Sequence record: NC_041936.1
Strand: one strand, 5' to 3'
DNA: 64,000 nucleotides
Source: Escherichia phage ECD7
Below are positions 5,973 through 55,391 of this stretch, piece after piece. The translations under genes and the position numbers were made by a program. The notes under the pieces were generated by a model. The model was not told where the DNA came from. It did not search any database and saw only the letters and a list, made by a program, of their open reading frames with translations. How positions within the stretch are numbered: the stretch's first letter is position 1; every line of letters begins with the position of its first letter.

Positions 5973-6278
5973 TTAAATATCCTCCGCGATATGACGGAAC
6001 AACTCCAGATCGTTTTTATCCAGAATGAAACCGCTACAATCAATAATCCCGTTACCGTAATTATCGGTTAACAGTCGGTCCGTTGCCATGTATGCGCGTA
6101 CTTTGTTGTTAAAATTCATTACGTGTTGTGCATAGTCACAATGAATCTTTTGACGGTTCCACGCGACAATTGATTGTAGATGTATGACATTAGCCATATC
6201 ATTAATAACAACCATATCAAAAACCTCGCTTAGTGAAATGTTCTGGCATTTTATTGATACATACAGCTTGGTAGTCAC
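5973..6278 (-). CDS. hypothetical protein (dexA.1 position)
   Basis: 101-aa ORF; its 5' region is part of a local direct repeat. Confidence 0.4.
   Translation of the reverse strand: MTTKLYVSIKCQNISLSEVFDMVVINDMANVIHLQSIVAWNRQKIHCDYAQHVMNFNNKVRAYMATDRLLTDNYGNGIIDCSGFILDKNDLELFRHIAEDI
6190..6269. repeat. direct repeat copy 1 (gene end/start junction module)
   Basis: ccatatcaaaaacctcgcttagtgaaatgttctggcattttattgatacatacagctt, repeated imperfectly at 6387-6447. Confidence 0.7.
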
Positions 6279-6386
6279 GAGATTTTTTTTGACGAATTAA
6301 GAGCTACAGCCAAAAAATCCTGTAACTGTTTGTTTGTCATTTTTGGCTTACACCGCGTATCTAAACTCTTCGTTCTTCTGGCTTCA

Positions 6387-6447
6387 TTAGCCATATCAAA
6401 ACCCTCGCTTAGTGAAATATTCGATCATTTTATTGATACATTCAGCT
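6387..6447. repeat. direct repeat copy 2
   Basis: ccatatcaaaaccctcgcttagtgaaatattcgatcattttattgatacattcagctt. Confidence 0.7.
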
Positions 6448-6573
6448 TCACTGTCGCCGGATACGTTCCATCCATAATGACCCCAACTAAAACACATGGT
6501 AACAGTTCCATTGTGACGGCGTACCGTCACATCATCAAATTCTGGGATACTTCGCATAATCATAATAATTTCC

Positions 6574-7965
6574 TCAAATATAGTCTACTCGATACCGCGC
6601 ACGGGTAACACCCACATATAATAACTGCATTGCCAATTCAAAGTCAACATTGTCTGTACACATGCAAGGAGTATACAGGAACACGCGGTCTACGCTGATC
6701 CCTTGTGACTTATGAATGGTGCAAGCTGGTAATGCTTTTACATTCAAGAACATACGCTTCATCGTCCAGAATGAATCCCAATCTGGTTTAAATTTTGGAT
6801 TCTCTTTCTTCATTTCGCGATATTGTCCGGCGACCGTATTCAGATAGATAGAGAAAATGTTCTTCTGACGTTGTTCTGTCAGAATGTTGATTTCTACTAA
6901 ATCTGGTTTATCTGTAGTGATTCCGACTGCATCTAAACCTACTTTCTGATTTAGGATTTCTTTGTCTTCGTCATCATCGACGCTTTCCACTTTCAGAGTA
7001 TATCCTAAAACTGGTTGCGGATCTACCCCCGTGCAACGTAATGTAAATTCACGCGGGATGACCTCTTTAACTCGGATCATCTCACCATTGTTAAAAATAA
7101 CATTGGGAATCTTCTTCCCGCGTTCATCTCGCAGATATTCGATCAATGGTTCCTGAGTAACCAGAATTTCATCTACAATCACTGGTTCATCGGTGTTATA
7201 AACGCGCTTACGTACAATTTCATTGAGTTTTTCGACGCTCTTGTTAGTGTAGGCCAGAATACGGTTTTCTAGAAGGTCTTCCGGCGTTTTAACGGTTTCG
7301 AAATAATGCTTCATAAACTCCGGCAGAGTTGAGCTATGGAATACACCCTCGTTACCGCACTGCTTTTCGAATACCCATTTACCGTTACGGACAGCGGTCG
7401 CCACATCAATTATTGGTGCATTGGACCGTTTAATCTCTGTGAGTTCTACATTCTGGAATCTTTCATCGGTGAAGAAAGGAGAGATCGACGTTGCACCGCT
7501 CGGATCAACTGGTCGTAACTGGTACAGATCACCAACGGCAATAATAACAATTCGACCGTTGATACTCTTCATGAGAATATCAAATAGTTTCTTATCGACC
7601 ATACTCGCTTCATCAACAATGATGATCTGAACATCATCTAGCTTAGGAGTATCTTTTTGCTCAAATACTTGAGTATCTTCATAGTTGGTCGGGTTTAGTC
7701 GCAGTAGTGCATGTAAAGTAAATGCTTGACGACCTACCGCTTTACTCAAAACTTTTTTAGCCTGGTGGGTGGGCGTTGCCAAAACCACACCAGTTACACC
7801 ACGGCGGACCATTTCCTGAACAATGAATTTCATCATTGCGGTTTTACCAGTACCCGCCGCACCCCGGACAGTTGTATGCTTCTTTTGTTCAATGCGTTTC
7901 ATTAGAACATCAAAAGCATGTTTTTGCCCGTCTGTTAACATATCGAAAGTTAATACTCTGCTCAT
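6574..7965 (-). CDS. dda: Dda DNA helicase (SF1)
   Basis: 463 aa; GAAGTGKT Walker A; LTDGQKHAFD and C-terminal LLYVGVTRARY resemble T4 Dda. Confidence 0.93.
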   Translation of the reverse strand: MSRVLTFDMLTDGQKHAFDVLMKRIEQKKHTTVRGAAGTGKTAMMKFIVQEMVRRGVTGVVLATPTHQAKKVLSKAVGRQAFTLHALLRLNPTNYEDTQVFEQKDTPKLDDVQIIIVDEASMVDKKLFDILMKSINGRIVIIAVGDLYQLRPVDPSGATSISPFFTDERFQNVELTEIKRSNAPIIDVATAVRNGKWVFEKQCGNEGVFHSSTLPEFMKHYFETVKTPEDLLENRILAYTNKSVEKLNEIVRKRVYNTDEPVIVDEILVTQEPLIEYLRDERGKKIPNVIFNNGEMIRVKEVIPREFTLRCTGVDPQPVLGYTLKVESVDDDEDKEILNQKVGLDAVGITTDKPDLVEINILTEQRQKNIFSIYLNTVAGQYREMKKENPKFKPDWDSFWTMKRMFLNVKALPACTIHKSQGISVDRVFLYTPCMCTDNVDFELAMQLLYVGVTRARYRVDYI

Positions 7966-52911: not shown

Positions 52912-53334
52912 TTATTGGTCTACCTTCAAAACAACCGCCGACATTTTACCCGCCAGTCGTTTTGGATTCTCTATAATCATTCGGCAGCATAGACCGTGAT
53001 ATGGCTTACCCTCTTCGATTAGATCTACTGTCATCCCGATCCACATGTTACCATCAGTAATTTCTAATCGATTAGGTCGGTTTTCCATTTTCAGGAAGTC
53101 GAAGATCTCCGGCAAACGAGTTTCTATCTTATTGAATAGTTCCATTGTCTTATGTTCATCGATATGACGATCGGTTAGACGGTCGATCATATGCGGACTA
53201 AAGCGAATGAAAATATACTCGCCGTAACCATCATTCAAGCACTTTTCTTTGATCTGCGCATTGGTTTTGCGCATTTCGGTTTCGAAGAATCTACGCAGCT
53301 TACTACGGCGAACATGTACGTTAATTGTTTCCAT
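52912..53334 (-). CDS. regB: RegB site-specific endoribonuclease
   Basis: VHVRRSKLRRFFE, RLEITDGNMWIGMTV, CRMIIENPKRLAGK resemble T4 RegB; ATG 53332-53334. Confidence 0.85.
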   Translation of the reverse strand: METINVHVRRSKLRRFFETEMRKTNAQIKEKCLNDGYGEYIFIRFSPHMIDRLTDRHIDEHKTMELFNKIETRLPEIFDFLKMENRPNRLEITDGNMWIGMTVDLIEEGKPYHGLCCRMIIENPKRLAGKMSAVVLKVDQ

Positions 53335-53338
53335 TTTA

Positions 53339-53674
53339 TTATCCTTTCTTAAACAAATTGCGAATCCAGTATACAAACGGGATCTCTTTAAACTTGAATT
53401 TCTCTATAGTTAATTCTTTAGTAGCAAGATGAATACCATAAGCATCATGTGTCACGATATGCCATTTTCTATAGTCCAAATGTGAACAACCGTCTGGATC
53501 TAGGTTAATAAGAGTTTCTCGCTCACTAGGATTATTTTTCCACAATTTTGTAATAGGATCGCACATAATTCGACCTAGCGTACCATGAATAATCTCACAA
53601 CGGTAAAGTTTTCCAGCAGTGAGATAGGCGCACCCGTCATAGTCGGTATAAACAAACACTTCTTTAACACTCAT
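53339..53674 (-). CDS. small paralog-family protein (GC[SA]HL..W motif)
   Basis: Internal ATG with GGAGTA SD; ...DPDGCSHLDYRKWHIV. Confidence 0.45.
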   Translation of the reverse strand: MSVKEVFVYTDYDGCAYLTAGKLYRCEIIHGTLGRIMCDPITKLWKNNPSERETLINLDPDGCSHLDYRKWHIVTHDAYGIHLATKELTIEKFKFKEIPFVYWIRNLFKKG

Positions 53675-53696
53675 TTTAATACTCCTTTGTTTCGAT

Positions 53697-53732
53697 GGGG
53701 GTATATTACTACCCCCGTTTTGTTGTGTCAAC
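53697..53732 (-). promoter_or_regulatory. sigma70-type early promoter (PeSL-like, GGGGGTA stem-loop)
   Basis: Minus: TTGACA-17nt-TAATAT. Confidence 0.55.
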
Positions 53733-53992
53733 TACTTTTTCAAGATTTTTTTAATTGCGTTCCAAAGACCTTTATTCTCAGGTTGTTTTGGTTCTTCGAT
53801 CAGTGTCCATGTTCGACCGTCTAAGTGTGCACAATTTTTAAGACAAATAAAAATCTGGTGTCCATTATCATCACGGATATAACCACTATTCGCAAATCTT
53901 TCATGTGGTGTATATTCATACAGTGTATTTGGTGTAATATACTTGCGGTTACTATAAGGTGTCATTACATATTTCATGGTACTAACTCCCAT
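53732..53992 (-). CDS. small paralog-family protein
   Basis: ...CLKNCAHLDGRTWTLIEEP. Confidence 0.45.
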   Translation of the reverse strand: MGVSTMKYVMTPYSNRKYITPNTLYEYTPHERFANSGYIRDDNGHQIFICLKNCAHLDGRTWTLIEEPKQPENKGLWNAIKKILKK

Positions 53993-54168
53993 TTATCACC
54001 GCGAAGATGAGAACATCCACCATCAAGAAGGATCGTAATACGAAACCCCGCATCATCTTCAATATACCCGATTGTCGGTGGATTTTCGTCGTCTCGTGCC
54101 GGGGTAAAATCATACATCTTTCCCGGTGTGATATCATTGCCTTTATTGCTATTGGTATAAACTTGCAT
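53974..54168 (-). CDS. small paralog-family protein
   Basis: ...LLDGGCSHLRGDKWELVP. Confidence 0.45.
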   Translation of the reverse strand: MQVYTNSNKGNDITPGKMYDFTPARDDENPPTIGYIEDDAGFRITILLDGGCSHLRGDKWELVP

Positions 54169-54189: not shown

Positions 54190-54888
54190 CTAACCACGGG
54201 TATAGTGTTCCAGAACAACTGTCAGATGAATATATTCTAATAGATCTTTCCAAAAGTCAACATCTGGTTCTTCCGGCATACCGTTTTTCTTTGCCTCTTC
54301 ACGCGCGAGTTTAACACGCTCGTAGAGGTCTTTCAATTCTTCCCGCACATTATCAAATGTTCTTTCTCCTAACTTACACGCTAAAATCGAAGAACGTCGT
54401 GCGAGCGGGAATTGTAGATCACCTGTCTGGTAGATTTCAAGTAGCTGATAACCAACACGCAGAGCATGAGAAAGATCTTTCCAGTTACTGAAATACTTTT
54501 CCGATTTGGCTACCTGTTTCTTGAGATAACCAGACAAACCCCACATACCAACATGATAGAATTTATCGCGATGTGTTCGGATGTATTCCCATTCTCTGGA
54601 GGATTCGATCAACATGTTACTAGGCGCGTGCACCATGTCAATAGCGCCGATATCGCCTTTACATGCCAGATTGATAAACCGTTTTAGACTGAACATATTA
54701 ACGTCAATATCGTCTTTGGTGTTCTTGATCCCTTGACCGCTAGTGCTTTGATCATAGTGTTCTTTCATCGATCCTAAGATAATTTCTTTCGCAGTCGGAA
54801 CAAAGATACCACGATAATCTTTATCTGAATTTTCAGTATCAAGGCCGTATAAGTGAGATCCGAAGACCATTTTAACCATTGTATGCAT
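54190..54888 (-). CDS. Pol-beta superfamily nucleotidyltransferase, unknown substrate
   Basis: FGSHLYGLDTENSDKDY fits the G[GS]x9-13DxD NTase motif; 232 aa. Confidence 0.6.
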   Translation of the reverse strand: MHTMVKMVFGSHLYGLDTENSDKDYRGIFVPTAKEIILGSMKEHYDQSTSGQGIKNTKDDIDVNMFSLKRFINLACKGDIGAIDMVHAPSNMLIESSREWEYIRTHRDKFYHVGMWGLSGYLKKQVAKSEKYFSNWKDLSHALRVGYQLLEIYQTGDLQFPLARRSSILACKLGERTFDNVREELKDLYERVKLAREEAKKNGMPEEPDVDFWKDLLEYIHLTVVLEHYTRG

Positions 54889-54933
54889 AATTAAACCCTC
54901 AGTTGATTAAGAGATTGCATCATATCATCATAA

Positions 54934-54963
54934 AACGAAAAAGCCAACCCTTTTCGGATTGGC
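54934..54963 (-). terminator. intrinsic terminator after the GrcA-like gene
   Basis: Minus: GCCAAUCC-gaaaag-GGUUGGC then UUUUUCGUUUU. Confidence 0.6.
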
Positions 54964-54974
54964 TTGATGAAAAA

Positions 54975-55391
54975 TTAGAGAGATTCGGTAAAGGTACGCG
55001 CGATAACGTCACGCTGCTGGTCTGGAGTCAGACTATTGAAGCGCACTGCGTAACCAGAAACGCGAATTGTAAGCTGCGGGTACTTCTCAGGATGTTCAAC
55101 AGCGTCCAGCAACATTTCTCGTAACAATACGTTAACATTCAAATGCTGACCACCTTCGACAACCGGAGCACCATTATCTACAATGACAGGACGGAAGCTA
55201 GTTGTGTGCAGTGCCAGCGAATCGACGTCTTCTGCGGTGATCACATGGTCTTCTGCGAAAGTTTTACTAACAATTACTTTAGCGCCGATCAGTGCTTTCG
55301 GTTCGGATACCAGAATCATAGGCGCGAAGTGTCCACCAATAATAGTACCTTTATGCTCACCTTTCATGATTTGAATTGCTTTAAATTCCAT
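54975..55391 (-). CDS. autonomous glycyl radical cofactor (GrcA/YfiD-like)
   Basis: C-terminal [12 protein letters not shown]...[34 protein letters not shown] nearly identical to enterobacterial GrcA. Confidence 0.85.

Follow-up and report, generated by a model that had tools for sequence, protein, structure and literature searches.

A putative RlaP-family nucleotidyltransferase without the T4-type insert in Escherichia phage ECD7, a candidate enzyme of phage RNA repair

The first RNA-repair pathway is that of bacteriophage T4, in which polynucleotide kinase (Pnk) and RNA ligase 1 are pitted against the anticodon nuclease PrrC. A different activity is found in the Pseudomonas RlaP enzymes, which extend the 3′-OH of RNA by one or two NMPs or dNMPs with Mn2+ as the preferred metal, and the genes for which lie in rtcB-rlaP-rtcA operons in P. 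fluorescens and P. aeruginosa (bioRxiv 10.64898/2025.12.29.696909). DNA and proteins were not substrates of the two Pseudomonas RlaPs, and E. coli proteins in particular were not; many E. coli RNAs were labelled, including rRNA-sized species and full-length tRNA, with little NTP specificity. Free strands were poorer acceptors for PfRlaP than the 5′ half of a nicked tRNA mimic, and RlaP partly rescues the aminoacylation of a tRNA that is short of one anticodon-loop nucleotide. In the crystal structure of PfRlaP, the nucleotidyltransferase (NTase) and helical domains form a cleft, and the last helix packs back on the NTase domain. The authors of this study proposed that RlaP is an antidote to 'smart' ribotoxins such as RloC and counted T4 NrdC.11 among the PF10127 proteins of unknown function; in their similarity network it falls in cluster 5 and the characterised enzymes in cluster 1a (bioRxiv 10.64898/2025.12.29.696909). 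In jumbo phages, the distribution of RlaP mirrors that of RNA ligases, and a role in countering RloC has been predicted (Iyer et al. 2021, PMC7824862). Under laboratory conditions T4 can do without nrdC.11 (PMC9825161), as would be expected of an accessory counter-defence gene.

Here, we consider a gene of Escherichia phage ECD7 that lies in a stretch of 64,000 nucleotides of its genome (NC_041936.1), referred to below as the window. An initial annotation had reported an ORF of 232 aa at this site, and the ORF listing bears this out, placing it on the minus strand with ATG as its start codon.

54190..54888, minus strand: nrdC.11-type coding sequence, 232 aa plus a TAG stop codon (ORF listing, PF10127, phrog_388)

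The encoded protein matches PF10127 (RlaP, RNA repair pathway DNA polymerase beta family) with an E-value of 3.4e-14 and 53.6 bits, above the curated gathering cut-off of 23 bits. The match is unbroken, with residues 7–191 of the protein falling on profile positions 24–198 of 249. Among the PHROGs, phrog_388 ('nucleotidyltransferase') is matched in two stretches with an E-value of 2.1e-79; a search of NCBIfam with the protein gave no matching model. The gene (699 bases) is 95–99.7% identical to 57 phage records, all of them RB49-like Krischvirus (Cognac, GEC-3S, Phi1, JSE and RB49 are examples), and 97.9–99.7% identical to nrdC.11 of RB49-like phages, the gene being so named in the records of RB49, Phi1 and JSE. 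The RB49 copy, RB49p098, is annotated as nrdC.11 with the product 'nucleotidyltransferase' and the remark 'similar to T4 tk.-11'. The initial annotation had found no T4 gene to which the ORF could be assigned; given the nrdC.11 annotation in RB49 such an assignment can be made, and, judged by sequence, the ORF is the Krischvirus (RB49-type) ortholog of T4 NrdC.11. The gene is a known one, and ordinary among T4-like genomes, since the reference genome of this phage type has it annotated, Pfam curates the family and RlaP has been discussed as the identity of the T4 ortholog. Fourteen codons differ from RB49 nrdC.11, 13 of them synonymously and one through the conservative replacement I94V, and the gene is under purifying selection.

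Database entries for this gene are uneven in quality. The first 71 residues of a 94-aa variant (P0182) are 97% identical to the ECD7 protein, and beyond them its sequence departs and then stops; P0182 comes either from a frameshifted copy of this gene or from a sequencing error in a Krischvirus assembly. In many records, the nucleotidyltransferase is labelled 'thioredoxin', 'glutaredoxin nrdC' or even 'HNH homing endonuclease', with PP400783, PQ368571, OZ034687 and MT764208 as examples, and UniRef names are affected too. The thioredoxin- and glutaredoxin-type labels look like an annotation error that has spread from the gene name nrdC.11, and 'RlaP-family nucleotidyltransferase' would be the better annotation in their place.

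The residues expected of a nucleotidyltransferase active site lie in the N-terminal part of the protein.

54814..54864, minus strand: nucleotidyltransferase signature FGSHLYGLDTENSDKDY, residues 9–25, comprising G10-S11 and the predicted metal-binding pair D22-x-D24 (from invariance and alignment with canonical RlaP)
54703..54717, minus strand: K-D-D-I-D, residues 58–62, before the strand at 62–67; aligns with DDDLDI of canonical RlaP
54637..54639, minus strand: D84, an invariant acidic residue in the helix at 80–86 (alignment of 43 sequences)

Across an alignment of 43 family sequences, residues G10, S11, D22, D24, N56, D60, D62 and D84 are invariant, and G10-S11/D22-x-D24 align with GSRAWG...SDYD of canonical RlaP. 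The third catalytic carboxylate is probably D60 or D62, within residues 58–62, as the alignment with canonical RlaP indicates. D84 was considered for this position and set aside on the strength of the same alignment; in the pairwise comparison, the corresponding residue of canonical RlaP is Glu. The pattern G[GS]-x9-13-D-x-D, from which the initial annotation had recognised the active site, is indeed present as FGSHLYGLDTENSDKDY. It is weakly specific, with two occurrences when all open frames of 60 aa or more in the 64-kb window, ~38,650 residues together, are counted, and evidence beyond chance therefore comes from the PF10127 and phrog_388 profiles, both of which back it. The other occurrence, GGTISYSVEVRHDFDEAFKS, is found on the minus strand near 17.7 kb (an approximate position) within an open segment of 492 residues, and presumably matches by chance.

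Structure prediction with AlphaFold2, from the 43-member alignment, gave a model with a mean pLDDT of 91.7 and a pTM of 0.87, in which the protein adopts a compact, confidently predicted two-domain fold. An independent BFVD model of the identical protein coincides with it (TM 0.98).

54196..54543, minus strand: predicted C-terminal helical domain, residues 116–230 (AlphaFold2 model)

In the AlphaFold2 model, the beta/alpha NTase domain occupies residues ~1–95, with residues 62–67 as a strand, and the C-terminal domain is built of helices at residues 116–131, 136–155, 165–172, 178–201 and 210–230. NTase folds rank first in both PDB fold searches with this model, which also returned HEPN-like helical matches; the nearest solved fold in the PDB search is HalB, a DNA-synthesising enzyme. 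Neither the protein itself nor the family profile retrieved a true relative when searched against PDB sequences, and the matches to haemoglobin (E 0.19) and SAMTOR (E 0.026) were discarded as chance. The Pol-beta-type fold proposed by the initial annotation thus has the backing of Pfam, PHROGs, the AlphaFold model and the fold searches; a non-NTase fold was looked for in the structure prediction and an NTase fold was found instead. In family and fold, the protein is almost certainly an RlaP-family Pol-beta nucleotidyltransferase.

The comparison with bacterial RlaP reveals both similarities and differences. Common to the two are membership of PF10127, the G-S...D-x-D and D-D-x-D motifs, and, going by the predicted structure of the phage protein, an insert-less layout with the NTase domain at the N-terminus and the helical domain at the C-terminus; the sizes are also close (232 aa against a profile of 249 positions). 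Unlike bacterial RlaP, the ECD7 protein is encoded by a phage and its gene is in no operon with an RNA ligase. The N-terminal ~90 residues of the ECD7 protein are ~22% identical to the canonical RlaP of a deltaproteobacterial MAG (L012; BLASTP E 4e-5), and that enzyme scores 272 bits against PF10127 compared with 53.6 for the phage protein. Because the identity is this low and the Pfam score modest, substrate specificity may differ. When the family alignment was compared with the single canonical RlaP by hhalign, the probability was 7%, and RlaP membership rests on the Pfam HMM and not on hhalign. In the same MAG, a long NrdC.11-like gene (6001-6936, +) is followed by the canonical full-length RlaP gene (6963-7724, +), an arrangement of two divergent PF10127-family members in tandem.

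T4 and RB69 NrdC.11 (synonym tk.-11; phrog_388) are orthologous as annotated and have the same invariant residues, and pseT and rnlA are carried by both RB49-type and T4/RB69-type phages. The gene differs in location, lying in a string from vs.6 to the vicinity of regB in ECD7 and in the nrdC–mobD region in T4 and RB69. It differs too in architecture, since T4/RB69 NrdC.11 has an alpha/beta subdomain of ~100 aa that the 232-aa protein does not have.

54484..54504, minus strand: SEKYFSN linker, residues 129–135, at the site of the T4-type alpha/beta insert of ~100 aa (BLASTP, alignment)

T4-type NrdC.11 proteins are 302–344 aa in length and ~45% identical to the ECD7 protein. In a BLASTP comparison with RB69 NrdC.11, residues 1–128 and 135–222 of the ECD7 protein align at 43–52% identity, and RB69 residues 132–233 are skipped. 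Long forms break off near position 145 of the PF10127 profile whereas short forms match it continuously, and the ~100 residues therefore represent an insertion into the family core. Going by these alignments, the insertion is specific to the T4-like clade and lies outside the RlaP core. The insert was also modelled as part of a long form (P0017; pLDDT 86.7), where residues ~131–240 fold as a discrete alpha/beta subdomain in which a helix is followed by about five strands and then by a long helix; it sits between two C-terminal-domain helices. The second half of the insert (helix, three strands, helix) might recall the topology of a dsRBD, which is only an idea.

An exhaustive HMMER search returned 3,575 cluster representatives at E<=1e-3, and the insert was scored in the best 150. 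An insert of 60–130 residues is present in 145 of these and missing from five; in the 232-aa protein, seven residues separate the motifs that bound the insert. On a neighbour-joining tree, the five insert-less forms are scattered over three positions, in each case next to long forms, and their junctions differ: KSEKYFSNWK in ECD7, KYGIKGSKLEEAQKINWK in P0153, KYGLKGIDWK in P0230 and KENKVIDWK in P0143. The scatter of these forms on the tree and the differing junctions suggest that the insert is a dispensable module that has been lost repeatedly, with the number of losses tentative, as counted on a rough neighbour-joining tree with long branches and without support values. Devoid of the ~100-residue subdomain, the ECD7 protein would thus have a minimal core architecture, laid out as in canonical bacterial RlaP. 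In the literature searched, no description of the insert-less architecture was found, which is a small point.

A short ortholog of 234 aa (P0002), 57% identical to the ECD7 protein, is encoded on a divergent, Krischvirus-like metagenomic phage contig and matches PF10127 with 64 bits over profile positions 23–229. The order of genes on this contig is endolysin, vs.8, vs.6, an HNH endonuclease and RlaP, in synteny with the ECD7 window. The HNH/NUMOD4 homing-endonuclease gene (L005:3951-4547, +) is located between vs.6 and the NTase gene; the equivalent position in ECD7 holds only a spacer with terminator- and promoter-like sequences. Long forms with the insert are found in Sulfurovum MAG contigs (L029 and L037, match 6001-6933), and the neighbours in Sulfurovum (Campylobacterota) encode riboflavin kinase/FAD synthetase, polysaccharide deacetylase, GDSL lipase and an ABC transporter. 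Given that long forms occur in Campylobacterota chromosomes, the T4-type subfamily is not confined to phages.

The genes and putative signals around the NTase gene in the window are as follows.

52915..53334: regB (PF10715), beyond the three small ORFs downstream of the NTase gene
53339..54168, minus strand: three small ORFs downstream of the NTase gene (53342-53674, 53735-53992 and 53977-54168)
54896..54900, minus strand: GAGGG, a Shine-Dalgarno-like sequence 7 nt 5′ of the ATG, read from the sequence
54919..54947, minus strand: sigma-70-like promoter match TTGGCT-17-TATGAT with a TGn extended -10 (consensus scan)
54931..54965, minus strand: terminator-like hairpin with a 10-bp stem (five G-C pairs) and a T-run (consensus scan and sequence)

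The gene had been placed between regB and a 'GrcA-like' gene. This is accurate for the upstream neighbour, vs.6 (54975..55391; Pfam Gly_radical); on the other side, three small ORFs intervene before regB. They encode proteins of 111, 86 and 64 aa (phrog_6261/15978) that gave no Pfam match and are paralogs, 29–36% identical, with the common motifs C-[SA]-H-L-x-x-x-x-W and T-P...Y. The small ORFs are packed tightly, or overlap, with the NTase gene and regB, and this suggests that NTase, the three small ORFs and regB are one transcription unit. The promoter-like sequence agrees with the consensus at nine of 12 positions, a pattern match only and not evidence of function, and the terminator-like hairpin directly 3′ of the vs.6 stop codon is likewise a pattern match only.

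RlaP-family genes recur near redox or ribonucleotide-reductase genes in unrelated phages. The nearby gene is that for NrdH in two mycobacteriophages (L006 and L007) and nrdA/nrdB in a Bacillus phage (L008); in RB69 (L002) the RlaP-family gene is in the nrdC region, and in the ECD7 window it lies beside the glycyl-radical gene vs.6. As a clue to function, this Nrd/thioredoxin/glutaredoxin vicinity was set aside: early or accessory regions of the genome, along with annotation that follows the gene name, are the more probable explanation.

The partners that an RNA-repair role would call for are encoded at a distance. Besides pseT and rnlA, which lie ~75 kb from nrdC.11, the RB49 genome encodes a second small kinase, and RNA ligase and Pnk genes are absent within ~5 kb on either side of the NTase gene in RB49 and the 64-kb window. 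Neither is adjacent in RB49, the ECD7 window, RB69, the two mycobacteriophages, the Bacillus phage, or the Sulfurovum and Bacillaceae loci, and ARAGORN found no tRNA or tmRNA gene in the whole window. ORF clustering combined with Pfam scans revealed no conserved RNA-ligase neighbour in 38 bacterial or MAG loci, where the genes alongside were housekeeping or mobile-element genes. The unrelated mycobacteriophage AvadaKedavra, which has a distant homolog, encodes a polynucleotide kinase, an RNA ligase, a Ro-like protein and a tRNA cluster. NTase/RnlA counts by host genus are 285/287 for Klebsiella, 83/83 for Shigella and 69/69 for Acinetobacter, a co-occurrence within T4-like phages that is phylogenetically non-independent.

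The best explanation of the locus, to which we give an overall probability of about 0.5, is a stand-alone, catalytically competent RlaP-family nucleotidyltransferase with an intact active-site signature, which would tail RNA and serve in tRNA repair. The enzyme would use NTPs, probably with Mn2+, and add one or two nucleotides untemplated to the 3′-OH of RNA; going by the biochemistry of the family, we favour this tailing activity. By homology to Pseudomonas RlaP, its preferred substrate would be a broken tRNA. During infection, it could act with phage pseT (polynucleotide kinase/phosphatase) and rnlA (RNA ligase 1), restoring the nucleotides excised after cleavage by RloC-type host anticodon nucleases, and ligation would then give a usable tRNA. 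A counter-defence role of this RloC type is proposed only tentatively. In favour of the repair reading are the partner genes in RB49 and in AvadaKedavra, the parallel NTase and RnlA counts and the published prediction; counting against it are the low identity to canonical RlaP, the lack of an adjoining ligase or Pnk gene, the dispensability of T4 nrdC.11 and a nearest solved fold that belongs to a DNA-synthesising enzyme and not to one that tails RNA. The initial annotation had mentioned anti-defence among the functions of small phage nucleotidyltransferases, and in the sense of countering host anticodon nucleases that idea may be broadly right.

The same chemistry could serve another RNA target or purpose than repair of the anticodon loop, which we regard as unlikely. 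Shortened tRNA 3′-CCA ends would be one such target and mRNA fragments of the host or of early phage genes another, with RegB products marked for decay or protection after end-healing. The wide range of E. coli RNAs labelled by bacterial RlaP, with its little NTP specificity, would suit such a role, as would the position of the gene in a tight string that ends in an endoribonuclease gene, regB, and the lack of an adjoining RNA ligase gene. Against this, PfRlaP favoured the 5′ half of the nicked tRNA mimic, the link to regB is restricted to the RB49 type, with nrdC.11 placed elsewhere in RB69, and no particular alternative has direct support.

Substrates other than nucleic acids can also be envisaged. 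The initial annotation had pointed to the MNT, CD-NTase and KNTase families, and the protein could in principle nucleotidylylate a small molecule, as ANT, KNTase and LinB do, or a protein, in the way that MNT would AMPylate a host HEPN toxin, which corresponds to the antitoxin function suggested in that annotation. The kanamycin nucleotidyltransferase fold of ANT(4′) (KNTase; PDB 1kny and 6un8) gave the top Foldseek PDB matches (E 3.5e-5) and has the same two-domain plan of NTase domain and helical bundle; these enzymes modify small-molecule antibiotics. The likeness to ANT(4′) is limited, however, to TM-scores of 0.38–0.42 and 9–11% identity with no Pfam match, and TM-scores for the ANT/MNT-like group as a whole are low (0.25–0.42). 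No match to NTP_transf_2/MNT (PF01909) or KNTase_C was seen in Pfam at E<=1, and no PADLOC NTase model was matched, the sole PADLOC match being a weak one to CARF/HEPN (E 0.032). No HEPN toxin gene adjoins the NTase gene, the neighbours of which are vs.6 and the small phrog_6261/15978 proteins, and bacterial RlaP does not act on E. coli proteins. An enzyme of this sort is improbable here. Membership of a known defence system or of the CD-NTases was rejected on the NCBIfam and PADLOC results, and cGAS appeared only at a Foldseek E-value of ~0.05 with a TM of 0.2. The earlier interpretation therefore stands as to the NTase fold, and gives way to nrdC.11 in its T4 assignment and to RlaP (PF10127) in its choice of families.

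The resemblance to HalB raises a further alternative, that of an enzyme which makes short deoxy- or ribo-oligonucleotides without a template, possibly primed by a protein, and whose product acts as a signal or decoy. HalB itself, according to a 2026 review and the titles of its PDB entries, makes protein-primed poly- or oligo-dA and works with the HalA channel in host defence, and a phage enzyme of this type might replenish oligo-dA so that the Hailong HalA channel is kept closed. The structures of HalB (PDB 9dbh, 9dbi and 9dbj) match with modest TM-scores of 0.39–0.48 at 14% identity and with no sequence-level relationship; the resemblance is one general to enzymes with an NTase and a helical domain, ANT(4′), LinB and AAD(9) matching too. 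No sequence-level relation to the PADLOC defence NTase models was seen, and PfRlaP left DNA unextended and stopped after one or two nucleotides, so that a HalB-like synthase is highly improbable. The specific version in which the protein is a HalB counterpart instead of an RNA-repair enzyme, possibly tyrosine-primed, and holds HalA or another DNA-gated effector of the host in the off state with a decoy or replacement ligand, has a slimmer chance still; no HalA-like partner gene was found beside the NTase gene.

That the protein is a decaying or non-enzymatic remnant, inactivated when it lost the ~100 residues that T4 NrdC.11 has in addition, is hardly credible: its shortness against 145 of the best 150 family representatives, the dispensability of T4 nrdC.11 (PMC9825161) and the 94-aa variant, if frameshifted, would fit decay, but the missing piece is a T4-like-clade insertion and not core, the PF10127 match is continuous (as it is in P0002), the AlphaFold2 model is confident and compact with all catalytic residues kept, the codon differences are 13 synonymous to one nonsynonymous, the short form is kept at 57% identity in a divergent phage, and proteins without the insert are seen in three or more lineages.

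Under the preferred reading of RNA tailing in tRNA repair, nrdC.11 is a candidate third repair enzyme, one that would rebuild the nucleotides excised by RloC, a role in T4-like phages that is a published prediction. At 232 aa, with a confidently predicted fold and no insert, the minimal ECD7 form could be convenient for biochemistry and crystallography, and a comparison of the short and long forms would reveal what the insert contributes.
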